Part shown: positions 1-40,587 of the stretch, in pieces
How positions within the stretch are numbered: the stretch's first letter is position 1
Layout: every line of letters starts with the position of its first letter
DNA from: Candidatus Iainarchaeum sp.
GTDB taxonomy: Archaea; Iainarchaeota; Iainarchaeia; Iainarchaeales; DTGL01
DNA: 64,000 nucleotides
Assembly (NCBI GenBank): GCA_038895395.1
Contig: JAWANJ010000001.1
Coordinates: 298 to 64,297, forward strand
Direction of reading: 5' to 3'
Translations under genes and position numbers: made by a program
Notes under the pieces: model-generated
Seen by the model: the letters and a program-made list of their open reading frames with translations, nothing else
The model's database searches: none
What the model was told of the DNA's origin: nothing

Positions 1-240
1 ATTGGTAAGGCAAAAACCTTTCAGACTATCTTTATTTGTGATGCCATCATTAACCCGATACTTCTTTGCAGGATAATGTGGAAAACTTCCACCACCATGA
101 GCTACTATGAGCCTTTTATATTTCAAAGTTGATCTTATTTCAGAGGCTAACCTTGCAATCATATCTGTTCTAGCTTTTTCCTTAATGCATTTGTTTGTTA
201 TTAGTGAACCGCCTAACTTAACCAAAACCAGTTCTTTCAA
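1..240 (-). CDS. ipk: isopentenyl phosphate kinase (amino-acid-kinase family), partial; C-terminus lies beyond the window start
   Basis: Manual minus-strand translation of 1..255 gives ...DILKELVLVKLGGSLITNK...LIVAHGGGSFPHYPAKKYRVNDG..., matching the IPK/amino-acid-kinase N-terminal motifs (LKLGGS, HGGGSFGH). No stop before position 1. The only start in frame is TTG at 240-238, which overlaps the TGA stop of the upstream gene (TTGA). Confidence 0.6.
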   Translation of the reverse strand, partial: MKELVLVKLGGSLITNKCIKEKARTDMIARLASEIRSTLKYKRLIVAHGGGSFPHYPAKKYRVNDGITNKDSLKGFCLTN

Positions 241-623
241 AATATCACCTTGGCTTTATCAGCGTCAACTGTTACAAACATGCCATTTTTTATTTTCCCT
301 ATCCTTACTTTATCAACGCAGGGTATTTCTGACAATATAGCACCTGCTGCAACTATAGCCTCACATTCTGCTAATACCATAGCAGCCGGCGCTTTGTTGT
401 TTTTCTTTAATCGATATATTGTATAGGTCCCTACTGTAGAACCTTTTCCATGTGGAAATACTAAAACTTTATCCGCAATACATTTTCCTTCAAGCTCATG
501 TCCTTTTTCTATAACTATGCCTGTTTCTGGATCCACACCACCAAAGAATGATATTGGCTGTTTAGTAACTAAGCACTCACCCTTGACTTTTCCAGAAGCT
601 ATCGTACGACCTTTTAAAATCAT
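237..623 (-). CDS. aconitase X small subunit-like (phosphomevalonate dehydratase small subunit, DUF126 family)
   Basis: 128-aa ORF directly downstream of the AcnX catalytic subunit with a 4-nt overlap. Size and operon position match the two-subunit AcnX-type mevalonate-5-phosphate dehydratase. Confidence 0.55.
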   Translation of the reverse strand: MILKGRTIASGKVKGECLVTKQPISFFGGVDPETGIVIEKGHELEGKCIADKVLVFPHGKGSTVGTYTIYRLKKNNKAPAAMVLAECEAIVAAGAILSEIPCVDKVRIGKIKNGMFVTVDADKAKVIF

Positions 624-1795
624 TTTATCGCCTCTTCAATGCACTCTTTTAATGATGCTATTCTAACCTTGAAATTGTTAGAACCCCTACCATAAAAACA
701 TGCCTTTGCAGAATTTGTCAACATATAGCCAAACCTGTTTTTAAGTGGAGCCACGGCTATGCATGTGTCACATATGATTTTTGCGCCTGCTTTTTCAATA
801 ATTTCAGTGTAGCCCATTGAATCAGCGATTTTTTTAACAGGCCTTGCACAAGTTATCCAAAACTCTTTTTTCACTTTTTTTCCTTTTAGCTCTTTTGCAA
901 TCTCACGTATTTCAACAATAGATGCGTGTGGACAACCTATTGCTATTAAATCAACGCTACCAGAATCACTTAAGGATTTTTTTGCTTTTTCAATATCCTT
1001 TCTTGTTATGTACACTTCTTTTTTCGGTGGCTTCACATTTTCAGGGGTTATATTTTCCATATGAAAAAGAGCGGTACCGCCAAAAGTTGCTATGGAAGCA
1101 CAAAAACTCTTAAGCTCATCTAAGCTAGCATGGCTTATGCCTTTAATGTAGGGTATTGAATTACCAATTTTTTCACCCAATGCTTTGCCAAATGCACCAA
1201 AGTCAGCCACGCCTGAAAGCTCAGCCTTTACCAAAACAGAGTACTTTGGCTTGCGATTTTTATCAAGATGAAAACCATATTCTGGTGTTTTGCCTGTAAG
1301 TGCACTAGCCAAACTTGAAAATCCGCTTTCTCTGTTAGTTCTAGCGCCGAGTACAGAGTTTGCGAAGCAAACAGCACTGCTCTCACTCCATGCTATATGA
1401 GAGCCATACTTTGGAATATTCCCTATCAAGTAAGGCGTGCAAGTACATGTGACTATTACCCCCATCTTCTTGAAAGCCTCTAAGATACGTTCTTGCTTTT
1501 CGACAAAATTTTTATCTATGCCTAGATTTTGCCAGTTTTCTAGATCTATGCCAGCGGGGTTTAAAGTTGTAAGTGGAACTCTTACCTTAGCGTCTTGGGC
1601 GAGTTCTTCAAGCAAGCTAAGGCCAGCGTCTCCCAGGTTTTGGTAACTAACGCCAGCAATCTGCACACTTTCAACTGGTATGAGTCTTTTTGCTGAGTAT
1701 ATGTTACCAAGTGCAACAAGCAGTTCCATTGCCTTTTTCGCAGCTTTTCCGTGTTTACCTTTAAGATATTCCTTTTCTTCGAAGCTTAGTTTCAT
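620..1795 (-). CDS. aconitase X catalytic (large) subunit-like; putative mevalonate 5-phosphate dehydratase
   Basis: 391-aa ORF embedded between the UbiD-like decarboxylase and the small-subunit gene inside the mevalonate operon. This is the architecture expected for archaeal AcnX (DUF521) phosphomevalonate dehydratase. Confidence 0.6.
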   Translation of the reverse strand: MKLSFEEKEYLKGKHGKAAKKAMELLVALGNIYSAKRLIPVESVQIAGVSYQNLGDAGLSLLEELAQDAKVRVPLTTLNPAGIDLENWQNLGIDKNFVEKQERILEAFKKMGVIVTCTCTPYLIGNIPKYGSHIAWSESSAVCFANSVLGARTNRESGFSSLASALTGKTPEYGFHLDKNRKPKYSVLVKAELSGVADFGAFGKALGEKIGNSIPYIKGISHASLDELKSFCASIATFGGTALFHMENITPENVKPPKKEVYITRKDIEKAKKSLSDSGSVDLIAIGCPHASIVEIREIAKELKGKKVKKEFWITCARPVKKIADSMGYTEIIEKAGAKIICDTCIAVAPLKNRFGYMLTNSAKACFYGRGSNNFKVRIASLKECIEEAIK

Positions 1796-3111
1796 TTCTT
1801 TTCACCAAGATATTTTTTAAGATCTACCTTTTCATAAGACACTCTCTTAAAATCATCCTTATTTTTGTTGGCGGGTATTGTGAGGTCGAACCCAACCTTG
1901 CATGTTATTCTGGTTTTTTGATCTGCGCTAGGATCAAGACTTGAGCCTTTTTGACCAGGATAGATATATAGTTGCTTGTCAGCTTGGAATCTAGTAGCTA
2001 AGGCCCATTCAACATCTTGCATGTTGTTTGCATCAATATCCTCATCTACAACAAAAACATGCTTGAGTGAACTATGACCTTTGAAAGCAGCTTTGACTAC
2101 TTTTTTTATTTGTTCATCATTTTCTTTGCGTATTTGTACTACAGCATGAAGCCATGAACAACCACCTTGCGTTATGTTTACATTTATGCATTTAGCAACT
2201 TTGTTAACTTCGTTAAATATTGTTGGTTCTCTTGGCATGCCCATAAGCAAGCCATGCTCATTACCACCAGGAAGAAGCGCATGCCAGATAGCATTTTTTC
2301 TGTGTGTTATTTTTTTTACTTTTAGAATAGGTTGCTTTCTAACAAGGTCCCTTGTACCAGTTAAGTCCAGAAACATACCTTCATTGGCAAGTTCATTCAT
2401 AGTAAGGGTGCCCTCAATAACAAACTCAGAGCTTGCCGGAACGTAAACATTTGCGAATTTTGCTTTTACAACATTAAAATCTTCTAAAGCGCTTGCAATT
2501 TCAAATTCAAATTGACCTATTGGTGGGCTGGTTGCACCAGCAAGTAGAACACTTGCTGGATTACCTATACAAACAGCAACGTCAAGCTCTCCGCCAGCTC
2601 TATTCAAAAATTCATATAGATTACGTTCGCAAACCCTTACTGAAAAATTCTTTTTGTCAAGCTGCATACATCTGTGAAATGATGCGTTCATTCCAAGTTC
2701 TTTGTCACGTGCAACGAAAACGCCAGATGTTATGTAGTTTCCACCATCGATTTTTGTATGCTTTAAAATTGGAAGTTTGTCAAGATCTATTTCTTCATCT
2801 TCAATTACAACCTCCTGACAAGGACCTTTCTTTGAAACCTTGAGCTTTTTTGGTTTATTTAGAGCATCAACCAGGATTCTTATTAGATCTTTTTCCTTGC
2901 AGTTAAAATATTTTGAGATGTAACGTTTTGATGAGAAAACATTTCCGGCAATCATAAAGTTGGATTCTCGAATATTTTCGAAAAGCACTGGTTTTCCATC
3001 TAATGCTTTTAGCACAGCTGCAGCTTCTAAATTTTTTGATACAGGCCTACTTATTTTTATTAGATCCCCCTCTTTTTCGAGTTTTTTTAAGAAGCTCCTA
3101 AAGTCCATCAT
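1792..3111 (-). CDS. UbiD-family decarboxylase; putative trans-anhydromevalonate 5-phosphate decarboxylase
   Basis: 439-aa ORF of UbiD size and character, located immediately downstream of UbiX (14-nt overlap) and upstream of AcnX in the mevalonate operon. Confidence 0.7.
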   Translation of the reverse strand: MMDFRSFLKKLEKEGDLIKISRPVSKNLEAAAVLKALDGKPVLFENIRESNFMIAGNVFSSKRYISKYFNCKEKDLIRILVDALNKPKKLKVSKKGPCQEVVIEDEEIDLDKLPILKHTKIDGGNYITSGVFVARDKELGMNASFHRCMQLDKKNFSVRVCERNLYEFLNRAGGELDVAVCIGNPASVLLAGATSPPIGQFEFEIASALEDFNVVKAKFANVYVPASSEFVIEGTLTMNELANEGMFLDLTGTRDLVRKQPILKVKKITHRKNAIWHALLPGGNEHGLLMGMPREPTIFNEVNKVAKCINVNITQGGCSWLHAVVQIRKENDEQIKKVVKAAFKGHSSLKHVFVVDEDIDANNMQDVEWALATRFQADKQLYIYPGQKGSSLDPSADQKTRITCKVGFDLTIPANKNKDDFKRVSYEKVDLKKYLGEKK

Positions 3112-3646
3112 CCCACCTCTTATACAGGTTATTTTTTACTCCAAGCAGATCAAGTATTTTGCCAACTATAAATGCTTCTAGGTCAGCAATGCTGCGTGGT
3201 TTAGAATAAAACCCAGGAGATAATGGAAATACAACTGCTCCATAAAGGGATATCTCATAGAGGTTCTTAAGCGTTGGTGGGCTCAGCGGAGTTTCCCTTA
3301 TGCAAACAATCAGCTTTTTTTTCTGTCGTAGCATGTTATCGGCACACCTAGCAATAAGAGTATCGGTATGTGCATTGGCTATATCACTAACTGTTTTTAC
3401 ACTAGCTGGAATGATTACCATAGCGTCTGTTATAAAACTAGAGCTAGATATGGAAGCTCCCAAATCATTGTTGTCGTGCATCTTTGACGCGTACCTTTCT
3501 AAGTTAGGCGCTTCTATTTCAGAAACTTTTTTAGACCATTCTGACATCACAAGGTGGGTTTCAATTTTTCTTTTTTTAAGTTCTTTGAGAAGCAACTTTG
3601 TATAGTTTAAACCACTTGCACCACATGCTGCAATTATTATTCGCAT
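3098..3646 (-). CDS. ubiX: UbiX-type flavin prenyltransferase (prFMN synthase)
   Basis: 182 aa. N-terminus MRIIIAACGASG... is the typical flavoprotein fold of the UbiX/Pad1 family. Adjacent to the UbiD-like gene. Confidence 0.8.
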   Translation of the reverse strand: MRIIIAACGASGLNYTKLLLKELKKRKIETHLVMSEWSKKVSEIEAPNLERYASKMHDNNDLGASISSSSFITDAMVIIPASVKTVSDIANAHTDTLIARCADNMLRQKKKLIVCIRETPLSPPTLKNLYEISLYGAVVFPLSPGFYSKPRSIADLEAFIVGKILDLLGVKNNLYKRWDDGL

Positions 3647-4629
3647 TCCTTGACACCCTCCACACCTATTTTAGTTATTATTGCTTGTGCCCCTGTTGAT
3701 TCTATGGCTTTTGCTATTTTTTTCTCTGTTCCATTTTTTGCTAGAGCAAACATTACACCGCCCCAGCCACCACCACTTAGCTTAGCGCCAAGAGCACCCG
3801 CATTTAAAGCTTCTTTTATGCAGTCATCGAGCTTTGGATGACTCAGGCCTAGTTTAGAAAGTATCTTTTGATTTTTGTTCATAAGCGAACCTAGTAAAGG
3901 TTCATCTTCCGTTTGAAGAGCTTTTTCTATTGAATTGCAAATCAAAGCAATCTTTTTGAATTGCTTCTGGACAAATTCAGGATATCTTCGAATTAAAGAG
4001 GGCATGTGCATACCAACGGTAAGAGCTGTTGGAGCTCTTATATTGGTGTTTCCTATAACAACACTAAATCTATGTACCCCAAGGTTTTCAAAGCTGAGAG
4101 AAATTTTGCCTTCTGATCCAATCTTTTGAATCTTGTGATAGCCACCAAAAGAGCTTGAAAGAATCTCACTGCCGGAAGCTTTACCACCATGTACCTTAAC
4201 TTGAAGAGGATAAAGATATTTGAAAAAATCTTCTTTTTTTATACCAAAATCAAAAAGAAGATTTAATGCATGTAGAGATGCACTTAGCACAGCAGTGCTT
4301 GAGCTAAGACCAGACTCAACAGGAACATCAGATTCTATGCTTAGCCTAATGCCTCTTTTAATACCATGTTTTTTAATCAGGATCTCAATTAAGTCAAAAA
4401 AGATGTATAACTCCTTTTTACCGTGTCTGTTCAAAACTTTTTCGGATTTTAAGGATGCCTTGGCTTTACCAAGCTCTCTGCTTTCCACTATGATTGATCT
4501 ACTTTTTAAAATTGAGGCTGTGCAATATGCTCTTAGGTCAACTGCGGTCACTACTGCCGGATAACCATAAACGACAGCATGCTCACCAGCAAAAAATATA
4601 TTTCCTGGAGCACTCGCCTTTACAGACAC
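3637..4629 (-). CDS. mvk: mevalonate kinase (GHMP kinase)
   Basis: 330 aa. N-terminal SAPGNIFFAGEHAVVYG matches the MVK motif APGKxxLFGEHAVVYG. GHMP-kinase Gly-rich ATP loop (LSSSTAV) is present. Confidence 0.8.
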   Translation of the reverse strand: MSVKASAPGNIFFAGEHAVVYGYPAVVTAVDLRAYCTASILKSRSIIVESRELGKAKASLKSEKVLNRHGKKELYIFFDLIEILIKKHGIKRGIRLSIESDVPVESGLSSSTAVLSASLHALNLLFDFGIKKEDFFKYLYPLQVKVHGGKASGSEILSSSFGGYHKIQKIGSEGKISLSFENLGVHRFSVVIGNTNIRAPTALTVGMHMPSLIRRYPEFVQKQFKKIALICNSIEKALQTEDEPLLGSLMNKNQKILSKLGLSHPKLDDCIKEALNAGALGAKLSGGGWGGVMFALAKNGTEKKIAKAIESTGAQAIITKIGVEGVKECE

Positions 4630-4655
4630 TTTAGAAACCTCTTTGATTGATAATA

Positions 4656-5057
4656 TTAACTTATAACTTTGAATTTATAACCATAGGTAATAGTGCCATA
4701 TTTGTCTGGTTCACCTACTCTCCTAAAAACCTTTTTTACTTTTGCACCAATCTTTATAGCTTCTGGTTCGGAGTCAACTATTTGTGCTAAAACCCTTGCT
4801 TTGTTTTCTAGCTCTATTAGGGCTAGGTAGTATGGCACCTCGTTTTTGAAACCTTCTGGTGGCACATATACTCTAGTGTAGCTTATTATTTTGCCAAACC
4901 TAGGCATATCCATTTGAACAAGTTTGCCTTTTCTTCTACAGTTGGGACATATTGCTCTGGGCGGGAAAAAAGCTTGCTTGCAGACTTCACAGTAGTTTCC
5001 TCTCAACAAGTATCTTTCAGGAAATCTTCTCCAGTTGAGAGGTGCAACGTTTTGCAC
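4656..5057 (-). CDS. DUF35 OB-fold/Zn-ribbon protein (scaffold partner of thiolase/HMG-CoA synthase)
   Basis: 133 aa with CxxC...CxxC ribbon (CEVCKQAFFPPRAICPNCRRKG). Sits 4 nt downstream of the thiolase, which is the conserved archaeal thiolase-HMGCS-DUF35 triad. Confidence 0.75.
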   Translation of the reverse strand: MQNVAPLNWRRFPERYLLRGNYCEVCKQAFFPPRAICPNCRRKGKLVQMDMPRFGKIISYTRVYVPPEGFKNEVPYYLALIELENKARVLAQIVDSEPEAIKIGAKVKKVFRRVGEPDKYGTITYGYKFKVIS

Positions 5058-5061
5058 AATA

Positions 5062-6231
5062 TCACCCTTTGAATTTTTTATAAATTGTTACAACCGCTGT
5101 AGCACCTGAACCACCGACATTGTGGCTCAAACCTATCTTTGCTTTTTTCACTTGGCGTTCCTCAGCCATCCCCATTAGCTGGTAATAGGCTTCGACTGCT
5201 TGAGCTACACCAGTAGCGCCAACGGGGTGTCCTTTTCCTTTTAGCCCACCACTTGGGTTTATAGGAATCTTTCCTTTAAGCGAGGTATATCCTTTTTCTG
5301 TTGCAATACCACCTTCACCTTTTTCAAAGAAACCAAGATCTTCAATTGCTAAGATCTCCGCTATTGTAAAACAATCATGCACTTCTGCAAAGTCAATATC
5401 CTTTGGGCTTAGCCCTGTTTTTTTGTACGCTTTTTGTGCAGCCATTCTTGTGGCTTTTAGCTCCACCAAACTTTTCCTTCCAGTTATGGCCAAGGTATCT
5501 GAAGCTTGTTCTGATGCAAGTATTTCAACGCCTTTAAGGCCGAGTTCTTCAGCTTTTTGGTTTGAACATAAAATAAGTGCTGCTGCTCCATCCGTTATTG
5601 GTGAACAATCTAGCACTTTTATTGGTTCTGCTACATATCCTGACTTCATAACTTCTTCTATGGTTATTATGCGATGGAACTGTGCATTGGGGTTTAGCAT
5701 TGCATTTGCGTGGTTTTTAACAGCTACAGCTGCCATTTGTTCTTCGGTTGTGCCAAACTCATTCATATGCGCTCTTGCTAAAAGCGCATACAAACTTGGA
5801 AAAGTAGCACCGTGAAAGAGCTCAATCTCTTGGTCTCCTGCGCCACCTAAAGCAAAGCTAACTCCTTCTGTGCTAAGCTCAGTCATCTTTTCAACACCAC
5901 CAACAGCAACAATATCATGGACACCACTTTTTATTGCGAGATAAGCAGTCCTTAATGCAACACCACCAGAAGCACACGCTGCTTCGACTCTTGTACTAGG
6001 TATTGGATTTAAACCAAGCTGGTCTGCTATCAAAGCACCTATGTGCTCCTGCCCTATGAATCTCCCTGATGCCATACAACCGCCATAAATAGCTTCAATT
6101 TTTTCTCCTTGAAGGCCTGAGCTGCTTATTGCCTTTATTGCTGCATCTAGTATAAGTTCCCTAAACGATAGATCCCAGTGTTCATCAAATTTTGTAACAC
6201 CGGCCCCAACTATTACCACCATTTTATTCAC
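5062..6231 (-). CDS. acetyl-CoA C-acetyltransferase (acetoacetyl-CoA thiolase)
   Basis: 389 aa, archaeal thiolase (SCP-x-type) fold with active-site cysteines. Immediately downstream of HMG-CoA synthase. Confidence 0.85.
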   Translation of the reverse strand: MNKMVVIVGAGVTKFDEHWDLSFRELILDAAIKAISSSGLQGEKIEAIYGGCMASGRFIGQEHIGALIADQLGLNPIPSTRVEAACASGGVALRTAYLAIKSGVHDIVAVGGVEKMTELSTEGVSFALGGAGDQEIELFHGATFPSLYALLARAHMNEFGTTEEQMAAVAVKNHANAMLNPNAQFHRIITIEEVMKSGYVAEPIKVLDCSPITDGAAALILCSNQKAEELGLKGVEILASEQASDTLAITGRKSLVELKATRMAAQKAYKKTGLSPKDIDFAEVHDCFTIAEILAIEDLGFFEKGEGGIATEKGYTSLKGKIPINPSGGLKGKGHPVGATGVAQAVEAYYQLMGMAEERQVKKAKIGLSHNVGGSGATAVVTIYKKFKG

Positions 6232-7272
6232 CTACAAACTTTTTATCTTTCGTCTGTGTTTAAGATATATCGCATAGTCAATATACTCTTTTTCTTTTAT
6301 CATCTCAAGCACAGGTATTTTTGCTCTACGCTCAGAGATAGCATCAGTGGTGTTTATAACAAAAGCATCACTGCCAGCACCACTTCCATAGCTAACAGCA
6401 AGTATTTTTTGACCTGGCTTTGCAATATCAAGAATGCTTGCTAAGCCTATCATGGTAGCACCGCTGTATGTATTTCCTATGTAAGGTGTTAGCAAACCTT
6501 GTTCTATTTTTTTTGAATCTATTCCAAGAATGCTAGCAACCTTTAAAGGAAATTTTCCATTTGGCTGATGAAAAACAGCATAGTCAAAATCGGATGCTTT
6601 ATAACCAGTATCTTCAAGGATCATCTTGGCTGCACCCAAAACATGTTTGAAGTAAGCCTCTGCTGTAAATCTGCCTGTATGCTCAGGAAAATCTGCTTTT
6701 GGTCTACGCCAAAAATCAGGCATGTCACTTGTGTAGCTGCAGGTTGCCTCAATTTCGGCAATGACCTCATCTTTGTTATCGCCTATGAAAAAGGCACCAG
6801 CACCACTTGCAGCTGTAAATTCTAAAGCATCGTTTGGTTTGCTTTGGGCTGTGTCAGAACCTATGGCTAAGCCAACATCAATCATCTTTGCTTTTTTTAA
6901 TGCATAGCATATTTGCATACCAGCAGTACCTGCTTTACAAGCAAACTCAAGGTCAACAGCAAAGTATCTGTTTGTTGTACCTATGGCATCACCTACGATG
7001 CTAGAAGTTGGGTTAACTGCGTAGGGGTGACTTTCAGAACCAACATAAATTGCATTAATTCTTTTTGGATCTATAGAGAAGTCTTCTATGCCACGTCTTG
7101 CTGCCTCAACTGCTAAAGTGCATGCATCTTCGTCTATAGCAGCGACAGCTTTTTCATAAACACCAATCCCACCAGAACTCTTTTGCCATACTCGCTCGAT
7201 TTCGCTAACTTTTATTCTTAATTTAGGTATATATGCGCCATACCCAATAATTCCAACGACCATCTCAAGCAC
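6232..7272 (-). CDS. hydroxymethylglutaryl-CoA synthase
   Basis: 346 aa. N-terminal MVVGIIGYGAYIPKLRIKVSEI is typical of archaeal HMGCS. Overlaps the HMGR stop by 8 nt. Confidence 0.85.
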   Translation of the reverse strand: MLEMVVGIIGYGAYIPKLRIKVSEIERVWQKSSGGIGVYEKAVAAIDEDACTLAVEAARRGIEDFSIDPKRINAIYVGSESHPYAVNPTSSIVGDAIGTTNRYFAVDLEFACKAGTAGMQICYALKKAKMIDVGLAIGSDTAQSKPNDALEFTAASGAGAFFIGDNKDEVIAEIEATCSYTSDMPDFWRRPKADFPEHTGRFTAEAYFKHVLGAAKMILEDTGYKASDFDYAVFHQPNGKFPLKVASILGIDSKKIEQGLLTPYIGNTYSGATMIGLASILDIAKPGQKILAVSYGSGAGSDAFVINTTDAISERRAKIPVLEMIKEKEYIDYAIYLKHRRKIKSL

Positions 7273-8530
7273 CTTGCTTAATTTTTTTCAGGATTTCTCT
7301 TGCAAATGCCTCATTTATTTGGTTATTTTCAATCATGGCCATGGCGACCTTTTCTATTTCGTCTCCTGTTGCACCAGCTTGAATTGCTATGTTTTTGGCA
7401 TGAAGTCGCATATGACCATATTGGATTCCTGTTGTTGCGAGAGCGTAGAGTGCAGCAAAATTTTGAGCTAAACCAACAGCACCCATAACTTCTGCAAGTT
7501 CTTTTGCACTTTTTACCCCCAATATCTTTAAGCACAATTTTGCCATTGGATTTACCCTTGTTGAGCCACCCACTATACCAACTTGAATAGGTATTTCAAT
7601 TTCGCCAACCAAGTTGCCTTGTTTATCTTTCCAGTATTTTGTTAGTGGTTTATATTTACCCGACAGGCTAGCATAGCTATGAGCTCCGGCTTCTAAAGCT
7701 CTGAAATCATTTCCAGTAGCTATTGCTACAGCGTCAATGCCATTCATTATACCCTTGTTGTGTGTTGTTGCCCTAAAGCGATCAGCACAAGCAAATTTCC
7801 AAGCTTTTATTATATCTTCCACCACTCCCTTAGAGGAATCTTTTTCTAGCTCTACCTTGGAAAAAACAGCCCTTGCTTTAACCAGTCTATAGATGGCAAG
7901 ATTTGATATTATTTTAATGCCTGTCTTACATTTACAAATCTGTTCTATGTAAGGTGCTACACGCTCACACATTGTATTTATAGCATTTGCACCCATCGCA
8001 TCTTTGACATCAACTAGCAAATGCAAAACCATGAATTCCTTAAATCTCCTGATTTCTATATCTTTTGCACCACCGCCATAAGAAACAAGTATCTTATCTG
8101 TTGAATTTGCAATTTCCAATATCTTTTCTTTGTTCTGTTTTATTAACCTGGTAACCTTTTGCTGTTTGCTGCCCTTTGCAAAGATTTGTACTTGTCCAAT
8201 CATGATTTGCTCTGTTGCTTTAGATTCAAAACCTCCTAAAAACCTAGCAAACTTTGCACCCTTGCTTGCTGCAGCAACAACACTTGTTTCTTCTATGGCC
8301 ATTGGCACAAGATAGTCCTTTCCGTTTATTAGAAAATGGGTTGCAATGCCCAATGGCAAACCAAAAATGCCGACAACATTTTCAATCATCTTGTCTGCTA
8401 TTTGAAAGCTAATAGGTTTAAGTTCTTTAAGCAATGTGACCTCTTCTTCTGAAAGCCCACACACATATTTTAATATTTGAAGCCTTTCTTCAAAAGTTTT
8501 ATTATAAAAACCACTTATTTTAGAACCCAT
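7265..8530 (-). CDS. hmgA: HMG-CoA reductase (class I)
   Basis: 421 aa, class-I-like HMGR in length and character (specific catalytic motifs not traced), first gene of the operon. An archaeal TATA-like element (reverse complement of ~8570-8585) lies upstream. Confidence 0.85.
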   Translation of the reverse strand: MGSKISGFYNKTFEERLQILKYVCGLSEEEVTLLKELKPISFQIADKMIENVVGIFGLPLGIATHFLINGKDYLVPMAIEETSVVAAASKGAKFARFLGGFESKATEQIMIGQVQIFAKGSKQQKVTRLIKQNKEKILEIANSTDKILVSYGGGAKDIEIRRFKEFMVLHLLVDVKDAMGANAINTMCERVAPYIEQICKCKTGIKIISNLAIYRLVKARAVFSKVELEKDSSKGVVEDIIKAWKFACADRFRATTHNKGIMNGIDAVAIATGNDFRALEAGAHSYASLSGKYKPLTKYWKDKQGNLVGEIEIPIQVGIVGGSTRVNPMAKLCLKILGVKSAKELAEVMGAVGLAQNFAALYALATTGIQYGHMRLHAKNIAIQAGATGDEIEKVAMAMIENNQINEAFAREILKKIKQGA

Positions 8531-8785
8531 TAGAACACACCTTGCAATAAATGTGAACCTACGAAAGAAATTAAAATAGTTCGATTTTTGGCTATTGCAA
8601 TTTCGTCAAAAAGCGATTTTATGAATATGTCTCGAGGGTGGCAAAAATTGTTTTTAATTTTCACGCGGGGGGGTTTTAAGATAGGTTTTTATAGTAAAGG
8701 AGTAAATTTAAATGGTAAAGGAGTACTAGCTAAATTTTATTGAATTATTATGGTGTTTTAGTTTTTAATTAAGATTACATTATTT

Positions 8786-9524: not shown

Positions 9525-11045
9525 TTGAGGTGTTTTGGTATGTTTTATTCTGATGATGATAAAAAAATTTTGGAAAATTTTGTAACAAACCTTGACAAGA
9601 ATATTTATATCGTACACAATCTGCCGCCAGAGGTTGTTTCAGTGCTATTTGCTTATGTTAGCAGATCTCCAGAGAGCTTTAGGACAAATCTTTTGAAATT
9701 GGTTAAAGAAGGAAACTTAGATTTGCATACTGGAGAAAAAAGCAAGGAGGTTGTTTTAGAAAAAGCAATAAAAAAAGCCTCCGATTTTCAAAGGAAATGG
9801 GTTGTTGGCTTTGGCCATTTTAGCATAGCTGAGCATGCAGTAGTTCATATTGCAATAGAAAACATAAGCATACTTGCTACCAAGATATTGGAAGACAATA
9901 GGCTTGCAAGTTATACGGAAAAAAGCACAAGATATCAAAAATTTGATAGAAACACTTATTACAAACCAAAAAAAATAATTGAGTCGAAATATGGCAAAAA
10001 CTATGAGGAAACCCTAAACGGTTTATTCGATTTTTATGTTGAGAGTTTCCCTGTTGTTGAAAACTATTTCAAAGAGAAATATCCTAAAAAGGAAGAGATG
10101 AGCGAGCAATATTATGCTTCTTATATAAAGTCAAAAGCTTGTGATGTTCTTAGATACTTGCTTCCAACTGCAACGCTCACTAATTTAGGTGCAACTTTCA
10201 ATGCAAGATCTCTTGCTCACGCTATAGAAAAATTATTGTCGCATCCACTAGAAGAAGCTCAGCAAATTGGACAAGATATAAAAGCCGAGGCTACGAAAAT
10301 TATGCCAACACTTGGTGGTTTTGCTGAGAAAAGCACATACATTCAAGAAACTACAAGAGGGCTTCAAGAGTTGGCCAAAAGTGAGATTTCAATGAAATCA
10401 GGTAAAAGGTCTTTAAAAAAACACAATGAAAACAAGGTAAAATTGGTTAACTATACATTGGATGCTGAAGAAAGACTTATAGCTGCAATTATGTATAAGT
10501 TTGTTGATCTACCTTATCAAAAAGTTTTGGAAAAAGTTAAGAAGATGGACAACAAAAAGAAAAAGATTGTTTTTGAAGAATTTTTTAAAAGGATCTCTAA
10601 CAAAGATGCGCCGTTAAGGGAGCTTGAACATTCATTCTACACTTTTGAGATCACAGTTGATTATGGTGCATATAGAGATCTGCAAAGACACAGGATGTGT
10701 ACTCAAACAACACAAATGTTAACAACCAAGCATGGTTTTTGCATTCCAGAAGAGATGAAAAATTTAGGGCTTGAGAAGGAGTTTGTTGATCACATGAAAA
10801 AGGCCAATGAATTATACTTTTCATTGGTTGATGAGTTCCCATATGAAGCTCAATATTGCGTACCGCTTGCATTTAGAAACCGGACAATCTTTACAATGAA
10901 CGCTAGAGAGCTATACCACATAATAAGGCTTAGGTCTGGCAAGGCAGGCCATAAAAGCTACAGAAAAGTTGCTCAGCAGATGTACTTTGAACTACAAAAA
11001 GCACAGCCATTGATTGCGAAATACTTTGCGGTTGATTTGAGCTAA
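9525..11045 (+). CDS. thyX: FAD-dependent thymidylate synthase ThyX, tandemly duplicated (pseudo-dimeric); N-terminal copy degenerate
   Basis: 506 aa, twice the normal ThyX length. The C-terminal half has RHR (DLQRHRMCTQ) and the downstream MNARELYHIIRLRS...AHKSYRKVAQQM ThyX signature. The N-terminal half has GHFSIAEHAVVHIAIENIS and ...NARSLAHAIEKL but with RHR replaced by EDNRLAS. Confidence 0.55.
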   Translation: MRCFGMFYSDDDKKILENFVTNLDKNIYIVHNLPPEVVSVLFAYVSRSPESFRTNLLKLVKEGNLDLHTGEKSKEVVLEKAIKKASDFQRKWVVGFGHFSIAEHAVVHIAIENISILATKILEDNRLASYTEKSTRYQKFDRNTYYKPKKIIESKYGKNYEETLNGLFDFYVESFPVVENYFKEKYPKKEEMSEQYYASYIKSKACDVLRYLLPTATLTNLGATFNARSLAHAIEKLLSHPLEEAQQIGQDIKAEATKIMPTLGGFAEKSTYIQETTRGLQELAKSEISMKSGKRSLKKHNENKVKLVNYTLDAEERLIAAIMYKFVDLPYQKVLEKVKKMDNKKKKIVFEEFFKRISNKDAPLRELEHSFYTFEITVDYGAYRDLQRHRMCTQTTQMLTTKHGFCIPEEMKNLGLEKEFVDHMKKANELYFSLVDEFPYEAQYCVPLAFRNRTIFTMNARELYHIIRLRSGKAGHKSYRKVAQQMYFELQKAQPLIAKYFAVDLS

Positions 11046-18090: not shown

Positions 18091-19155
18091 TTATATATCT
18101 CTGTTTATAGCAAAATCAGCAAATGCTTTAAGCTCTTGCTTGCCATCATTATTTGGAATTTTTTTGTCAATTTTGGCCCAAGCTTTTTTAACTATGGTTC
18201 TGGCTTTATTTATTGAATAATATATAGCACCTGATTTTTTAATCAAAGCTATTGCTCTTAGAATTTTGTCTTTATCCTTTGTGTGCAAGTTTAGTATTTG
18301 CTCAAGCTCTTCAGCTTCTTTTTTAGGTAAATTTTGAAATGCTTTTATTACTAAAAGCGTGCGTTTACCTTCGCTTATGTCTTCGCCTATTTCTTTCCCC
18401 CAATCTGTGCTTTTTGGAGCAATATTCAAAATATCATCTTGTATCTGAAAGGCAACACCTAGAGCCTCACCAAAATTGCCCAATGCTTCGATTTGGGTTT
18501 TTTTAGCATTGGCAAGCACAGCACCTAACTTTGCAGCAAATCTAGCCAAAACACCAGTCTTGTAAGCACACATTTGAAGATAAGCGGATTCGCTAATAAC
18601 CTTGCTTTTACCTTTATGCCACCATATGTCCATTGCCTGTCCAACACTAAGGCGAAGCATTTCTTGGGCATAAATATTGTATATTTTAATAATCTTTTTT
18701 TCTGGTAGATTATATTTGTTGTTATACAGAATTTCAAGCGGTATGAAGTACATGGCGTTGCCAGTGTTAACAGCACAGTCGATGCCGTATATTTTATGCA
18801 TTGCTGGCTTTCCACGCCTTAAATCTGCATTATCTTCAACATCATCCACAAGCAAAGTACCTTCATGTACAAACTCAATTAGCGGTGCAAATTTAACTGC
18901 AAGTTCCTCTGGGCCATTAAGAGCTTTGCAAGCAGAAATCATAAGTGCTGGTCGCCAGCGTTTGCCCCCTCTGTTTAGAAATTCCCAAACTTGATCTGTC
19001 AGGCCTTCTTGTATGGTCTTTGTATCATAGCAATATTTTGGTTCACCAAGAGCTCTTTTAACCCAAAACTTTGCACTTTTTGGAAAAACATTTTCAAGTT
19101 CTTTGTCAATTGCTTTTTTCTTTTCAGATATTATATCCATGGCATCTAAAGTCAT
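18091..19155 (-). CDS. (all-E) polyprenyl diphosphate synthase (GGPP synthase-type)
   Basis: First DDxxD-type motif LLVDDVEDNADLRRG and second FQIQDDILN are present. Confidence 0.85.
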   Translation of the reverse strand: MTLDAMDIISEKKKAIDKELENVFPKSAKFWVKRALGEPKYCYDTKTIQEGLTDQVWEFLNRGGKRWRPALMISACKALNGPEELAVKFAPLIEFVHEGTLLVDDVEDNADLRRGKPAMHKIYGIDCAVNTGNAMYFIPLEILYNNKYNLPEKKIIKIYNIYAQEMLRLSVGQAMDIWWHKGKSKVISESAYLQMCAYKTGVLARFAAKLGAVLANAKKTQIEALGNFGEALGVAFQIQDDILNIAPKSTDWGKEIGEDISEGKRTLLVIKAFQNLPKKEAEELEQILNLHTKDKDKILRAIALIKKSGAIYYSINKARTIVKKAWAKIDKKIPNNDGKQELKAFADFAINRDI

Positions 19156-28707: not shown

Positions 28708-29944
28708 ATGGCTGGGCTAAAATTAAATGAAATTGTTAAGAACATTGAGGAGGTTAATTTCAGCGAGGTTGAAAACAAGGTTGTTTTGCTAAGAGTTGAT
28801 TTAAACAGCTCAGTTAAGGATGGAAAGCTTCTAAAAAGCCCAAGAATTGTGGGTCACTTTCGTACCATAAAAACCTTTTTAGATCACAAGGCCAGGTTAG
28901 TTATACTAGCACATCAGGGACGAAAAAGGCAGAGAAGATTTTATCTCTTTGAAACAGCATGTTGAAATGTTAAAGCAAATGCTAGGAGATGAAATCGAAT
29001 TCTGTACTTGGGACGAAGATTATGTTGCTAAGATAAAAAACCTTAAACCTGGCAAGGCCTTAATGCTAGAAAACACCAGGTTTTTAGACTTTGAAACCAA
29101 TGAGATAAGCAAAGAAGAGCACGCAAAGAATCCTGTGATTCAGAAGATTGCTTCAGTCAGCGACATGTTTGTGTTGGATGCTTTAAGTGTGTCACATAGG
29201 TGCCATGCGAGCGTTGTTGGTTTTATACCTTTGTTGAAAAGCTACGCTGGGCCTATTTTATATTCTGAACTTAAGGCTTTGGCAAAGATGTCTAAAATAA
29301 AGGGCAAATCAACCTTCGTGTTAGGTGGTATGAAACCGGATGACTCTATTTATATAATGGAAAAGATGCTTAGTTCAGGAAAGGCGAGCAAAGTACTATT
29401 AGGTGGAGGCTTAGGTGAGTTAGCGTTAATTGCTAATGGTGTAAAACTTGGTGGTAAAGAGCAGGTACTTAAAGATAAAGGCATGATGGAATTTGTACCA
29501 AAACTTAGAGATCTTATTAAGAAGTATAAAAAAGAGATTGTATTACCACAAGATTTAGCGATTGAAAAAAACACCCTTCGCGAGGAGGTTTCTATAAAGA
29601 GTTTACCTGTAAACGAAATGACTTTTGACATAGGTGAAAAAACAGCAGACCTATATTCTAAAGAGATAAAAAAAGCGAAGGTTATAATTGCAAACGGTCC
29701 AGTAGGCAAATTCGAAGCAGAGTACTTTTCGTTTGGCACAAGAAAGGTTCTTGATGCAATGGCAAATTCAAAAGGATTTAGTTTGGTTGGCGGAGGAGAC
29801 ACAGTAACAGCGATAGCCAGACTGGGTTTCAAAGAAAGTGAGTTCGACCATGTAAGCTTGGCAGGGAAAGCCTTGCTTGAGCTGCTTGCTGGTGAAGAGT
29901 TGTTTGGTCTTGAAGCTCTTGCCGAAGCAAAGTACAAAAAATAA
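28708..29944 (+). pseudogene. pgk: phosphoglycerate kinase interrupted by a +1 frameshift in an A5 homopolymer (28923-28927); could equally be a sequencing error
   Basis: ORF 28708-28965 is the PGK N-terminus (…VLLRVDLNSSVKDGKL…LVILAHQGR). ORF 28949-29944 is the rest. Removing one A from cgaAAAAAggc restores ...HQGRKGEDFISLKQHVEML... Confidence 0.7.
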
Positions 29945-30048: not shown

Positions 30049-31236
30049 ATGAATAGTTTTCACGTTTTAATGTTAGGTTGGGAATTTCCACCATTCAAGT
30101 CAGGGGGTCTTGGCACTTATTTGTTGGGTTTCACAAAAGCATTAAACTCCCTAGGCGTTAAAATAACTTTCATTATGCCATATACTGGCAAAAGTTTAAA
30201 ATACGATTTCATTGACATCATACAGGCTGACGGTATTGAAATTTTTGGCATAAGCTCAGGCTTGACACCATACTTTGTAAAAGGTGTTGATGGTGAAAAT
30301 AGAACTTCTGTTAGTAGCGTGTATGGTTGGCGGTTTTTCGATGAGGTGAAATATTACACTCAAAGGGCAATAGCAATAGGATCTAAAATAGAATGTGATG
30401 TGATTCACTGCCATGATTGGATGACTTACATGGCAGGCATAGCGCTTAAGAAGATTCTGAAAAAGCCTCTGGTTGTGACAATACATAGCACAGAATATGA
30501 CCGCACTGGAAACCTTTTTCCCAATGCTGAAATAGTCAGTATTGAAAGACGGGGTCTTACCGAGGCAGATATGGTAATAACAGTGAGTGAATATGAAAAA
30601 AGGCAGATTATTGAAAAGTATGGCATTGAACCAAACAAAGTTGCTGTTGTTTATAACGCCATAGACCTTGAACAATATAAGCGCAAAAATATTGAGAAGT
30701 ATTTGAACGACAGAATTGTTCTTTTCGTTGGGAGGCTTACAGTACAAAAGGGCGTAGATTTTTTCATCGAAGCTGCAAAGAAGGTACTTGAAAAGAATAA
30801 AAGTGTGAGGTTTGTTATTGTTGGCTCCGGAGATCAAATGCCACATCTAATACAAAAAAGCATCAGCTTGGGAATAGCAGACAGAGTACATTTCGTTGGT
30901 TTTGAAAATGATGTTTCTAAGTATTATTCGATTGCTGATGTTTTTGTGATGCCAAGTGTTTCTGAACCATTTGGTTTAACTGCATTAGAAGCACTTGCAT
31001 GTGAAGTGCCTGTGATAATAAGTAAACAGAGTGGAGTTAGTGAAGTTATAAGGAACTGTTTAAAGGTTGATTTTTGGGACACTCAAGAGTTGGCTAACAA
31101 GATAATTGCAATGTTGTATTATCAACCACTGTATGAAGAATTGAAAGAAAGATCAAAAATGGAAATTTTGAAGTATAGAAGTTGGAGGGATGTCGCCATA
31201 GAATGCCTGGAAATTTATCGCTTAGTTGCAAGGTGA
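30049..31236 (+). CDS. glycosyltransferase, glycogen synthase-like (GT5/GT4, KxGGL type)
   Basis: N-terminal MLGWEFPPFKSGGLGTYL resembles the GlgA K-T-G-G-L motif. 395 aa GT-B fold. Confidence 0.65.
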   Translation: MNSFHVLMLGWEFPPFKSGGLGTYLLGFTKALNSLGVKITFIMPYTGKSLKYDFIDIIQADGIEIFGISSGLTPYFVKGVDGENRTSVSSVYGWRFFDEVKYYTQRAIAIGSKIECDVIHCHDWMTYMAGIALKKILKKPLVVTIHSTEYDRTGNLFPNAEIVSIERRGLTEADMVITVSEYEKRQIIEKYGIEPNKVAVVYNAIDLEQYKRKNIEKYLNDRIVLFVGRLTVQKGVDFFIEAAKKVLEKNKSVRFVIVGSGDQMPHLIQKSISLGIADRVHFVGFENDVSKYYSIADVFVMPSVSEPFGLTALEALACEVPVIISKQSGVSEVIRNCLKVDFWDTQELANKIIAMLYYQPLYEELKERSKMEILKYRSWRDVAIECLEIYRLVAR

Positions 31237-32440
31237 TATTTTGAAAAAAATATGTTTTTACTTTCAAGTGCACCAACCTATGCGCATAGGAAAATATTCT
31301 TTTTTTGATATTGGAACAGGTAAAAGTTACTTCGATGAAGAAAAGAACAGGGCGTATTTGGAACGCGTAGTAAAAAAATGCTATGGACCAGCAACTGCAC
31401 TAATAAATGAGCTTATTAATGAAACTGATGGTGCTTTCAAGGTTAATTTTAGTATTACAGGCACTTTAATTGAACAGCTAGAAAAATATTTTCCAAAAAT
31501 TCTTGAAAGCTTTATTGCAGTTGTTGAAACGGGTTGTGCGGAATTGTTTAATGAAACTTATTATCATTCACTTTCCTTTTTGATTTCAGAAAGGGAATTT
31601 AAAGAGCAGATAAAGCTTCACAGAAAAAAGATAAAGGCTGTTTTTGGTGTTAAACCCAAGGTATTTAGAAACACTGAGGCAGTATATAACAATGACATAG
31701 CTAAAATTGTTTCGAAACTTGGGTTTAAGGCTATTGTGACTGAGGGTAGTGAGAAGATATTAGGTTGGAGAAGCCCAAATTACTTGTATAAAGCAAAGGG
31801 AGAAGATATCTTACTTCTTTTAAGAAACTATAGGCTTAGTGATGACATTGCGTTTAGATTCTCTGAGAGAAGCTGGACGGAATATCCTTTGACAGCAGAT
31901 AAGTATGCATATTGGATAGCGGCCACACAAGGAGAATGTGTAAACATATTTATGGACTATGAAACCTTTGGTGAGCATCAGTGGCCTGAAACAGGAGTTT
32001 TTGATTTCTTAAGACATTTGCCAATGGAGATTTTAAAGTATCGTGACTGTGAATTTGCTTGTGCATCTGAAGTTATAAAGAAACTTGAACCAAAAGATGA
32101 GCTGGATGTTCCGTATTTTTTGTCATGGGCTGATATAGATAGAGACTTGTCAGCTTGGCTGGAAAACAGAATACAAAGGCATGCTTTCGAGGAGATCAGG
32201 GCTCTAGAAAAAGCAGTTAGGAAAAGCAAAAATCTGGATATTTTGCATAGCTGGCGCTTGCTGCAAACATCAGACCACTTTTATTATATGTGCACAAAGT
32301 GGTTTGCGGATGGCGATGTACACAAATATTTCAATCCTTACGAGACGCCTTATGATGCATATATAAATTATATTAATGTGCTAAACGATCTAAAGATGCG
32401 CTTAGGTATTAACGCCCAGCAGCAAGCTCATATGCGTTAA
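31226..32440 (+). CDS. glycoside hydrolase family 57 protein
   Basis: N-terminal FYFQVHQPMRI matches the GH57 HxHQP signature. 404 aa. Confidence 0.65.
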   Translation: MQGDILKKICFYFQVHQPMRIGKYSFFDIGTGKSYFDEEKNRAYLERVVKKCYGPATALINELINETDGAFKVNFSITGTLIEQLEKYFPKILESFIAVVETGCAELFNETYYHSLSFLISEREFKEQIKLHRKKIKAVFGVKPKVFRNTEAVYNNDIAKIVSKLGFKAIVTEGSEKILGWRSPNYLYKAKGEDILLLLRNYRLSDDIAFRFSERSWTEYPLTADKYAYWIAATQGECVNIFMDYETFGEHQWPETGVFDFLRHLPMEILKYRDCEFACASEVIKKLEPKDELDVPYFLSWADIDRDLSAWLENRIQRHAFEEIRALEKAVRKSKNLDILHSWRLLQTSDHFYYMCTKWFADGDVHKYFNPYETPYDAYINYINVLNDLKMRLGINAQQQAHMR

Positions 32441-34220: not shown

Positions 34221-34287
34221 CTAATCGCCTTTCAATAGTAATTAAAATAATAAAGGTTAAAATAACTTTCATTTTAACAATTAGAAT

Positions 34288-36168: not shown

Positions 36169-36173
36169 ATTGC

Positions 36174-36180
36174 TTTTTTT
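36174..36180 (+). terminator. T7 run immediately after the GDE stop (archaeal oligo-T terminator candidate)
   Basis: TAG stop at 36166-36168 followed by tgcTTTTTTT. Confidence 0.35.
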
Positions 36181-36211
36181 AAATAAAGTTGCTTTTATTT
36201 ATTAGAGCAGC

Positions 36212-37108
36212 ATGGGTATGAACCAAACAAATGAGAACAAGGAAAATATTGGAAACATAGTTGAAAAATATGTTGAGAACTTCAAAAGAGAACTGATTGT
36301 TGGTGGTTTTTCCAATAGGACCATTAAAATGTATCTGCTATATATCCGAGAATTTCTTGAGTTTATAAAAAAAGACCCATTGCTTGCAACTCGAGAGGAT
36401 GTTATAGCATACATGGCACACAAAAAAGAAAATAAGGCCACTGATTCTACGATGTGTTTGGTTTATTCTGCATTGAGACATTTCTTTAAAGAATATTTAA
36501 AAAGCGATGTGATGGAAGATATAAAGAGGCCAAAAAAGGGGACAAAGTTACCAGTTGTGATGACTAAAGAAGAGGTTATACGGATGATAAATGCTGCTGA
36601 AAGAAAAAAAGACAGACTGATAATGATGCTTCTTTACTCTAGCGGTATGCGTGTTAGCGAGGTAACAAAGCTGAAAATAAATGATATTAATTTTGCTGAT
36701 AGAACAGCAATAGTGCGCGGCGGTAAAGGGAATAAGGATAGAATAGTAATCTTGTCTGAGTCTTGGTTAAAAGATTTGAGTGATTATTTGAAAAAAAGAA
36801 AGGCAAAGACAGAATATGTTTTTTCAGATTATTTGGGCAGACCAATTTCAGTGGATACTATTCAGAGAATTGTAAGAAAGGCCAGAATTAAAGCAGGTAT
36901 CGAAAAAAATGTGACACCACACAGTTTTAGACATACATTTGCTACACACCTTCTCGAGCGTGGTGAAAACATTAGAAAAATACAGGAGCTTTTGGGTCAT
37001 AGCAACTTATCTACAACGCAGATATATACAAAAGTTTCTGTAGAGGAATTAAAGAAGGTCAAAAGCCCGTTGGACAATTTAGAAAAATTTGATAAATGCA
37101 ATGGATAA
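36212..37108 (+). CDS. xerA: tyrosine recombinase, XerA/XerC/XerD family
   Basis: C-terminal catalytic region HSFRHTFATHLLERGENIRKIQELLGHSNLSTTQIYTKV (HxxR...H...Y) and the N-terminal SAM-like core-binding domain. Confidence 0.85.
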   Translation: MGMNQTNENKENIGNIVEKYVENFKRELIVGGFSNRTIKMYLLYIREFLEFIKKDPLLATREDVIAYMAHKKENKATDSTMCLVYSALRHFFKEYLKSDVMEDIKRPKKGTKLPVVMTKEEVIRMINAAERKKDRLIMMLLYSSGMRVSEVTKLKINDINFADRTAIVRGGKGNKDRIVILSESWLKDLSDYLKKRKAKTEYVFSDYLGRPISVDTIQRIVRKARIKAGIEKNVTPHSFRHTFATHLLERGENIRKIQELLGHSNLSTTQIYTKVSVEELKKVKSPLDNLEKFDKCNG

Positions 37109-39075: not shown

Positions 39076-39150
39076 TAGCGGGGGATGGATTTGAACCATC
39101 GACCTTCGGGTTATGAGCCCGACGGGCACTCCAAGCTGCCCCACCCCGCT
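39076..39150 (-). tRNA. initiator tRNA-Met (CAT)
   Basis: Reverse complement folds as a cloverleaf: acceptor AGCGGGG/CCCCGCT (A1:U72), anticodon arm TCGGG-CTCATAA-CCCGA with three G:C pairs, T arm GATGG-TTCAAAT-CCATC, discriminator A. Confidence 0.85.
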
Positions 39151-40586: not shown

Positions 40587-40587
40587 T

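Follow-up and report, generated by a model that had tools for sequence, protein, structure and literature searches.

The archaeal mevalonate pathway was reportedly described for Aeropyrum pernix by Hayakawa et al. in 2018, and Yoshida et al. are said to have reconstituted it from Methanosarcina mazei in 2020. The enzymes of this Aeropyrum-type pathway include phosphomevalonate dehydratase (PMDh, an aconitase X (AcnX) of type IIb), anhydromevalonate phosphate decarboxylase (AMPD, of the UbiD family), UbiX and isopentenyl phosphate kinase (IPK). Zhu et al. (2024, PMC11052028) found that most archaea, most DPANN among them, have the pathway, and noted that the mevalonate (MVA) genes "usually form gene clusters". 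Hoshino and Gaucher (2018, PMC6107057) tabulated the MVA synteny per phylum, and reported MVA genes in Diapherotrites and class II HMG-CoA reductase (HMGR) in DPANN, Asgard and TACK archaea. Here, we analysed a stretch of 64,000 nucleotides (hereafter the window) from Candidatus Iainarchaeum sp., contig JAWANJ010000001.1. A row of ten genes on the minus strand of positions 1-8530 is very probably the biosynthetic operon of this known pathway in an archaeon of the Iainarchaeota (DPANN). This view is built on the observed gene content, order, spacing, family membership, conservation of the AcnX active site and conservation of synteny, from which we infer the enzyme activities, the AMPD assignment, the single transcript and any regulation.

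The ORF listing gave nine complete ORFs and the start of a tenth, which Pfam and NCBIfam assigned as follows, in the direction of transcription:

7265..8530, minus strand: class II HMGR, 421 aa, first gene of the row; PF00368 372 bits, TIGR00532 449 bits (cutoff 260)
6232..7272, minus strand: archaeal HMG-CoA synthase (HMGCS), 346 aa (probable start ATG at 7263); NF003274 507 bits (cutoff 244)
5062..6231, minus strand: acetoacetyl-CoA thiolase of the archaeal type, 389 aa (probable start ATG at 6222); NF004720 548 bits (cutoff 420)
4656..5057, minus strand: DUF35 scaffold protein of the thiolase/HMGCS complex, 133 aa; PF01796 (DUF35/OB_ChsH2_C) and PF12172
3637..4629, minus strand: mevalonate kinase (MVK) of the DPANN/CPR (candidate phyla radiation) type, 330 aa, GTG start; TIGR00549 172 bits (cutoff 163)
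3098..3646, minus strand: UbiX flavin prenyltransferase (synthase of prenylated FMN), 182 aa; NF004685 192 bits (cutoff 188), TIGR00421 177 bits (cutoff 109)
1792..3111, minus strand: UbiD-family decarboxylase, candidate AMPD, 439 (or 438) aa; TIGR00148 367 bits
620..1795, minus strand: AcnX large (catalytic) subunit, predicted large subunit of phosphomevalonate dehydratase, 391 aa; PF04412 509 bits
237..623, minus strand: AcnX small (swivel) subunit, predicted small subunit of phosphomevalonate dehydratase, 128 aa; PF01989 120 bits, NF003046 183 bits (cutoff 163)
1..240, minus strand: IPK, first 80 codons, TTG start inside TTGA, the rest lying past the window edge; NF040647 (IPPK_Arch) 68.7 bits on 80 aa

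Curated cutoffs were passed for class II HMGR, HMGCS, thiolase, MVK, UbiX, the UbiD family and the small AcnX subunit. A reading made earlier from the sequence alone (the sequence-only reading) had proposed this gene order and these identities, and the profile assignments of all ten genes agreed with it; the HMM searches of the translated ORFs that it called for recovered the AcnX, UbiD, UbiX and IPK families. It had also taken the trio of AcnX, UbiD/UbiX and IPK as the signature of the trans-anhydromevalonate-phosphate route, and this holds. Its statement that the operon spans every step from acetyl-CoA to isopentenyl phosphate is right as far as it goes, but IPK takes the operon on to isopentenyl diphosphate (IPP). 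It reported no phosphomevalonate kinase (PMK) or diphosphomevalonate decarboxylase (DMD) in the operon; we found by tblastn that genes for PMK, DMD or phosphomevalonate decarboxylase (PMD) are also missing from the whole window, which holds one GHMP-family gene only, the MVK.

The nine junctions between the longest ORFs are, in transcription order, -8, 0, +4, +26, -10, -14, -4, -4 and -4 nt, ranging from a 14-nt overlap to a 26-nt gap with no gap larger than that. The overlaps and the gaps of 4 and 26 nt on either side of DUF35 had been described correctly, but the HMGCS/thiolase junction is 0 nt and not an overlap. The last three junctions are stop/start overlaps of the form ATGA, ATGA and TTGA. 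A ribosome-binding motif (GGTG, GAGG or AGGTG) stands about 6-12 nt before all start codons. For HMGCS and thiolase, the motif is better placed for the ATG at codon 4 than for the GTG upstream of it (in HMGCS, AGGTG lies 7 nt ahead of that ATG), and the true starts of both are probably these ATGs, in which case the junctions become gaps of +1 and +9 nt. The UbiD homologue in NCBI starts at the second ATG (438 aa), which gives an 11-nt overlap. No run of seven or more T was found within the ten-gene block. From the spacing and the ribosome-binding sites, a polycistronic and translationally coupled operon would fit the row well.

The proposed pathway would run as follows. Thiolase and HMGCS, held on the DUF35 scaffold, would convert three acetyl-CoA to HMG-CoA, which the class II HMGR would reduce to mevalonate and MVK would phosphorylate to mevalonate 5-phosphate (MVA5P). 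The two-subunit Fe-S AcnX is predicted to remove water from MVA5P to give trans-anhydromevalonate 5-phosphate, and the UbiD-family enzyme, using prenylated FMN supplied by UbiX, would decarboxylate this to isopentenyl phosphate, which IPK would convert to IPP. One promoter upstream of HMGR most likely transcribes the ten genes, each with its own Shine-Dalgarno-like site, and the ATGA/TTGA overlaps would couple the translation of neighbours. The IPP would then be passed to a polyprenyl synthase and a geranylgeranylglyceryl phosphate (GGGP) synthase encoded elsewhere in the window, leading to ether lipids. These two genes are:

18091..19155, minus strand: short-chain trans-polyprenyl diphosphate synthase, 354 aa, consumer of IPP and dimethylallyl diphosphate; PF00348 229 bits
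50365..51159, plus strand: GGGP synthase, 264 aa, first committed step of archaeal ether lipids; PF01884 148 bits, TIGR01769 207 bits (cutoff 162), NF003198 287 bits (cutoff 247)

The best NCBIfam matches of the polyprenyl synthase are IdsA and geranylgeranyl diphosphate synthase, both under their cutoffs. Because both synthases lie in the same window, the product of the operon has its expected consumers.

The closest solved structure of the large AcnX subunit is TkAcnX of Thermococcus kodakarensis (7cnr_A, 368 bits, 50% identity), compared with 205-210 bits for the proline dehydratase structures, and that of the small subunit is its partner TK1248 (7cnr_B, 155 bits). The residues of TkAcnX that bind the Fe-S cluster and MVA5P have been catalogued (PMC8184944), and all 14 of those in the large subunit are identical here:

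Cysteine ligands of the [4Fe-4S] cluster kept in the large subunit: C119, C288, C345
MVA5P contacts kept in the large subunit (11 of 11): A47, G48, V49, S50, N53, N79, E138, S139, S140, K364, Y368

The small subunit keeps the GKGSTVG motif and the equivalents of the catalytic Ser62 and of Thr63 and Val64, with one conservative Leu-to-Phe change at L27 of the TkAcnX contacts. The type-II cysteine is present in GCPHAS of the large subunit, and the Cys-x-Cys [2Fe-2S] pair of type I was not found there, the motif being D-T-C-I-A. The score against TkAcnX, the conservation of all large-subunit contacts and the lack of the type-I pair lead us to call the pair a type-II AcnX, with the predicted activity of a phosphomevalonate dehydratase. 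The alternative identity of a dehydratase of cis-3-hydroxy-L-proline was rejected, as NF051439 gave 301 bits (cutoff 700) and the C-x-C pair is lacking. That dehydratase and the AcnX here have in common their superfamily, their fold family and the residues for binding the carboxylate and the C3-OH. On the other hand, AcnX here has two subunits, a cysteine at the GCPHAS position without C-x-C, phosphate-binding residues, and a score far under the family cutoff. The sequence-only reading had named two outcomes that would count against it. The first, an AcnX of another specificity, was not what we found, given 368 bits for TkAcnX against 210 bits for proline dehydratase and the kept MVA5P contacts.

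The second outcome was a UbiD homologue that groups with UbiD proper. The model of UbiD proper (NF008175, 4-hydroxy-3-polyprenylbenzoate decarboxylase) gave 129 bits against a cutoff of 788, so that this identity was rejected, and the motif of the homologue is one it has in common with the AcnX-adjacent homologues. It also fails the NCBIfam models of VdcC and of the menaquinone and phenylphosphate carboxylases. Its best solved relative is HmfF with only 218 bits, and the E. coli UbiD structures reach 112 bits, compared with at least 495 bits for the listed members of the AcnX-adjacent clade; an HmfF-like furan decarboxylase was likewise rejected. The UbiD gene is directly upstream of the large AcnX gene in 69 of the 70 loci with enough flank, which belong to Iainarchaeota, Asgard, Bathyarchaeia, Micrarchaeota and some Chloroflexi. 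The AcnX-adjacent homologues in other archaea are 44-81% identical to the window protein. N142, R147, E202 and E244 are common to all 71 AcnX-adjacent homologues, and so is E-G-x-F-x-D-L-T (71/71; residues 244-251 of the window protein), where HmfF and AnInD have E-G-P-F-G/A-E. In M. mazei, the Gene IDs of the PMDh and AMPD genes that served to rebuild the pathway follow one another directly (PMC13198327), which suggests that the characterised M. mazei AMPD shares the AcnX-adjacent arrangement. A Methanosarcinales AcnX contig showed no UbiD gene adjoining AcnX. Gene context and the clade motif make the UbiD homologue a strong candidate for an AMPD. UbiX, which would supply its cofactor, has 6m8v (UbiX, 138 bits) as its top PDB match, and its nearest solved structures are UbiX and Pad1 enzymes. 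No second UbiD homologue was found in the window by tblastn.

The IPK could be followed beyond the window edge in its relatives. The full-length orthologue of L001, one of the related loci described below, is 75% identical over the 80 aa and scores 218 bits against the cutoff of 120. The start of this gene at TTG within TTGA, as proposed from the sequence alone, is backed by L001 and L002, which have TTGA at this codon, and by L003, which has ATGA there. IDI2 follows IPK by 75-200 nt in L085 and L002, and the IDI2 proteins of L001 and L002 pass TIGR02151. It is probable that an IDI2 gene lies just beyond the window edge here.

In the upper pathway, HMGR was called class II because it scored 449 bits with TIGR00532 and 73 bits with the class I model TIGR00533 (cutoff 442). 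Its top PDB matches are all 3-hydroxy-3-methylglutaryl-CoA reductases, such as 6dio and 1qax, and we take these and the other top matches to be class II enzymes. A catabolic role, as the "degradative" name of the HMGR model would have it, was dropped in view of the biosynthetic context. HMGCS also passed TIGR00748 (477 bits, cutoff 353). The HMGCS-thiolase-DUF35 gene triad resembles the thiolase/HMG-CoA synthase/DUF35 complex of Methanothermococcus thermolithotrophicus (6esq/6et9), whose DUF35 chain is the best solved relative of the DUF35 protein here (top PDB match 6esq/6et9 "Pfam DUF35", 116 bits), and such a complex would be predicted here from the genes. Unlike that system, the thiolase here falls just under the equivalog cutoff of the M. 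thermolithotrophicus-type acetyl-CoA acetyltransferase model (NF053570, 524 vs 600 bits).

The MVK is supported by 11 of 11 top PDB matches that are mevalonate kinases. Hoshino and Gaucher (2018, PMC6107057) reported that the MVK of DPANN groups apart from other archaeal MVK. The nearest relatives beyond the lineage belong to Nanoarchaeota, Aenigmarchaeota, Nanohaloarchaeota and Patescibacteria (44-53% identity). The MVKs that occupy the same slot in four related loci are only 26-31% identical to the MVK here, while the flanking genes are 47-80% identical. This difference in identity suggests that the kinase was swapped in place within the operon slot. The same-slot MVK genes lie at:

L004, 6571-7473; L048, 7156-7941; L076, 7228-8139; L080, 5442-6185

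The relatives were collected by a scan of one genome per species, which gave 80 loci (numbered with the prefix L), and their neighbours were mapped by tblastn with the window proteins. All ten genes occur on the same strand and in the same order in 7 of the 44 loci with enough flank, namely L001-L004, which are Iainarchaeum metagenome-assembled genomes (MAGs), and L048, L076 and L080, which are "archaeon" MAGs with about 60% AcnX identity. The same operon was found in two further metagenomic relatives, L085 and L086, making nine relatives in all, with AcnX identities of 59-83%. Their ten-gene spans cover 9.07-12.4 kb, and the version in the window is among the tightest. Of the marks of an operon, the row shows one strand, minimal spacing and an order that is kept in all nine. 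Ten functionally linked genes in an order that would be consistent with the pathway, kept in nine other genomes, is far beyond chance.

When compared with the Aeropyrum-type pathway, this locus has the same enzyme set with a two-subunit AcnX, keeps the TkAcnX ligands apart from the Leu-to-Phe change in the small subunit, has the UbiD homologue beside AcnX as the Gene IDs suggest for M. mazei, and has no PMK, DMD or PMD alongside. It differs in that HMGR is of class II and not class I, and in its DPANN/CPR-type MVK. A. pernix and T. kodakarensis have AMPD and UbiX at separate loci (PMC8184944), whereas here all ten genes, those for UbiX and the upper pathway included, form a single co-directional block. 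The distant locus tags of AMPD and UbiX in these two organisms make it fair to say, as the sequence-only reading did, that the genes are dispersed in characterised archaea. Its description of the operon as unusually compact holds against the cultured model archaea, but within the lineage this layout is the norm, and uncultured archaea commonly have large MVA clusters.

Other archaeal clusters share the core of the operon. About 45 Asgard loci carry class II HMGR-UbiD-AcnXL-AcnXS-(MVK)-IPK-IDI2 with UbiX on the opposite strand, and the Bathyarchaeia loci carry UbiD-AcnXL-AcnXS-MVK. Like these, the operon here has the core UbiD-AcnXL-AcnXS, which there often has the same class II HMGR immediately upstream and MVK/IPK/IDI2 downstream. 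A weak HMGCS-like match (25-30% identity) was seen a few kb upstream in the Asgard loci. Unlike in this operon, the Asgard HMGCS matches may be paralogues, thiolase and DUF35 were not detected near them, and the genes are not in pathway order; ten colinear genes were seen in no Asgard or Bathyarchaeia locus. UbiD-AcnXL-AcnXS triads were also observed in bacterial bins (L027, L034, L051 and L077; Thermodesulfobacteriota, Nanopelagicaceae, Chloroflexia and Anaerolineaceae). The L034 bin, with the full Asgard-type layout, may be mis-binned, and the Chloroflexi triads may reflect a true transfer of the archaeal route to bacteria.

We did not find a paper on this exact ten-gene operon in the literature, although we cannot deny that one exists. 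The enzymes, the pathway, its presence in the phylum and the tendency to cluster are already published, and the ten-gene layout is a conserved lineage trait; there is no new enzyme, pathway or organisational principle here. The operon offers a tidy case of a DPANN archaeon in which the genes of the archaeal mevalonate pathway are all linked. Since many members of DPANN cannot produce lipids of their own, the operon supports the published view of Iainarchaeota as comparatively self-sufficient. The Iainarchaeota have been discussed as possibly free-living (PMC12892359). The cluster is also a possible natural template for moving this ATP-saving pathway into production hosts, and a convenient one because UbiX is included, the source has a moderate G+C and is probably mesophilic, and orthologues exist with IDI2 attached.

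The region upstream of HMGR contains two candidate control elements:

8568..8581, minus strand: TATA-like A/T box AACTATTTTAATTT, candidate promoter of the operon about 40-50 nt upstream of the HMGR ATG
8582..8615, no strand: 34-bp palindrome CGCTTTTTGAC-N12-GCCAAAAATCG, candidate operator with 11-nt arms and a 12-nt spacer
Palindrome in relatives, at the same position with respect to HMGR: L001, 3196-3229; L002, 3184-3217; L003, 1395-1428; L085, 3179-3212; L086, 3202-3235

The TTTT core of the TATA-like box is invariant in an alignment of the six genomes, and the box may act as the promoter. The palindrome is directly 5' of this box, 52-85 nt upstream of the HMGR ATG, and a pattern search found it once in the window. 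In the six-genome alignment, it forms an island of invariant columns amid poorly conserved intergenic sequence. The upstream neighbour varies while the palindrome stays fixed: L001 and L002 have a HAD hydrolase there, L085 has ThyX and L086 a MazE/PIN pair, compared with a 244-aa ORF in the window. Read most simply, the palindrome is a candidate operator for a dimeric regulator of the operon. A stronger proposal, in which a dedicated transcription factor has its operator here and would switch the whole pathway from acetyl-CoA to IPP as a unit, we consider conceivable but rather doubtful. If true, it would offer the first handle on archaeal control of flux into membrane-lipid precursors, and the operon would be a naturally self-contained, mesophilic and ATP-saving cassette of ten or eleven genes for engineering. 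To our knowledge, all elements here have been described before except for the operator-like palindrome and the swapped type of MVK.

Several points weigh against this explanation of the row. In L003, an insertion of 1.8 kb (5339-7143) sits exactly at the DUF35/MVK junction and splits the upper from the lower module; within it, an ORF of 317 aa runs with the operon and one of 224 aa against it. L087 (65% identity) keeps the lower half only. Because of these two loci, it appears that the upper and lower halves can work as separate units. The IPK is cut by the window edge, so that only its 5' third is in view. IDI (searched by tblastn), glycerol-1-phosphate dehydrogenase and digeranylgeranylglyceryl phosphate synthase were not seen in the window. 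The AMPD assignment is drawn from gene context and the clade motif, and NCBIfam has no AMPD-specific model. Characterised AMPDs are those of A. pernix (APE_2078), M. mazei and T. kodakarensis. Two residues of the UbiD homologue also depart from the solved enzymes: Asp249, which is found clade-wide, is at the position of the second Glu of E-G-P-F-G-E in HmfF and AnInD, and Asn164 is where these have the His of an R-H pair. Across the AcnX-adjacent clade, the latter position is H in 46, N in 14, T in 7 and D in 4. We take the second-Glu position to be that of the UbiD-family acid catalyst, and the His of the R-H pair is presumably a Mn ligand.

The first two of these points also speak for the alternative that the same pathway is transcribed as two or more units. 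The upper one would be HMGR-HMGCS-thiolase-DUF35 and the lower one MVK-UbiX-UbiD-AcnX-AcnX-IPK, and an internal promoter would lie either at the 3' end of DUF35 or within the 26-nt gap. This gap is the only sizeable one in the row and is A/T-rich (TTAATATTATCAA). In L003, an opposite-strand ORF is inserted at this junction, which requires a separate promoter for the lower half; in L087, the lower module stands alone with MVK divergent; and in L048, L068 and L080, the upper genes are 0.2-2 kb apart. However, in the window, L001, L002, L085 and L086 the DUF35/MVK junction spans no more than about 45 nt as bounded by the tblastn matches, and at most 26 nt where gene or ORF coordinates exist, leaving little room for a TFB recognition element (BRE), a TATA box and a leader. 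A promoter that near would also leave the GAGG site of the MVK start outside the transcript, and the operon lacks a run of seven or more T. We therefore regard a split into separate units as unlikely for the window, and one transcript from a promoter upstream of HMGR as the better explanation.

The row could also be a recently transferred cassette, or an artefact of binning or assembly. The MVK is of the DPANN/CPR type and only about 30% identical to the same-slot MVK of other Iainarchaeota, class II HMGR is patchy across archaea (PMC6107057), and the few matches in bins labelled bacterial (L027, L034, L051 and L077) would fit some movement of the genes. On the other hand, the G+C of the operon (0.38-0.40) is only slightly over that of the rest of the window (0.30-0.40), the same contig carries archaeal signal recognition particle (SRP) RNA and archaeal housekeeping genes, and there is no integrase within 27 kb. 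The SRP RNA lies within the window itself, the AcnX, UbiD and MVK proteins match entries of an NCBI "Candidatus Diapherotrites archaeon" MAG at 100% identity, and the related loci are labelled Candidatus Iainarchaeum. The upstream ThyX, MinD-like ATPase and PPDK are syntenic in L085, and in L001 and L086 the operon has ThyX at its flank too. Taken together, these points make such an origin very improbable, and we rejected the idea that the entire cluster was transferred recently.

Finally, it is scarcely credible that the AcnX pair and UbiD/UbiX act elsewhere, for example in hydroxyproline dehydration or aromatic-acid decarboxylation, as mere neighbours of the mevalonate genes. In favour of such a role, NCBI labels them only generically (the AcnX protein as "aconitase X catalytic domain-containing protein", the other as "UbiD family decarboxylase"), a decarboxylase of furan-dicarboxylate is the closest UbiD relative with a solved structure, and one UbiD homologue is named "2,5-furandicarboxylate decarboxylase 1" by JGI. 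Against it, the hydroxyproline dehydratase model falls far short of its cutoff (301 bits against 700), the type-I C-x-C is lacking, all large-subunit MVA5P contacts of TkAcnX are kept, the cluster without these genes has no enzyme to join MVK to IPK, the window holds no second GHMP-family gene, and dozens of archaeal genomes have the UbiD-AcnX-AcnX triad in the company of MVK, IPK, IDI2 and HMGR.

Some other features of the window were observed. The ThyX gene at 9525-11045 (plus strand, 506 aa) has two Thy1 matches and looks like a duplicated-domain protein; it flanks the operon here and in L001, L002, L085 and L086. A long RelA/SpoT homologue of 608 aa at 43124-44950 (minus strand) combines HD, RelA_SpoT, TGS and ACT domains, an architecture expected in bacteria.

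The phosphoglycerate kinase (PGK) ORF at 28949-29944 (plus strand) begins to match the PGK profile only at position 68 of 379, and a gap of 245 nt separates it from the upstream GAPDH gene. The 5' shortfall could come from an unusual start, a frameshift or a truncated gene. A glycogen-metabolism cluster lies within 30049-37108 and comprises a GT4/GT5 glycosyltransferase, a GH57 protein, a glycogen synthase and an amylo-1,6-glucosidase-like protein, followed by a tyrosine recombinase at 36212-37108.

The stretch with the lowest G+C of the window (0.30) is at 38-40 kb, next to several tRNA genes (39076-40678). One tRNA match of 91 nt at 40588-40678 (plus strand) lies 1 nt after the tRNA at 40514-40586; to judge from its length, it may contain an intron or have a long variable arm.

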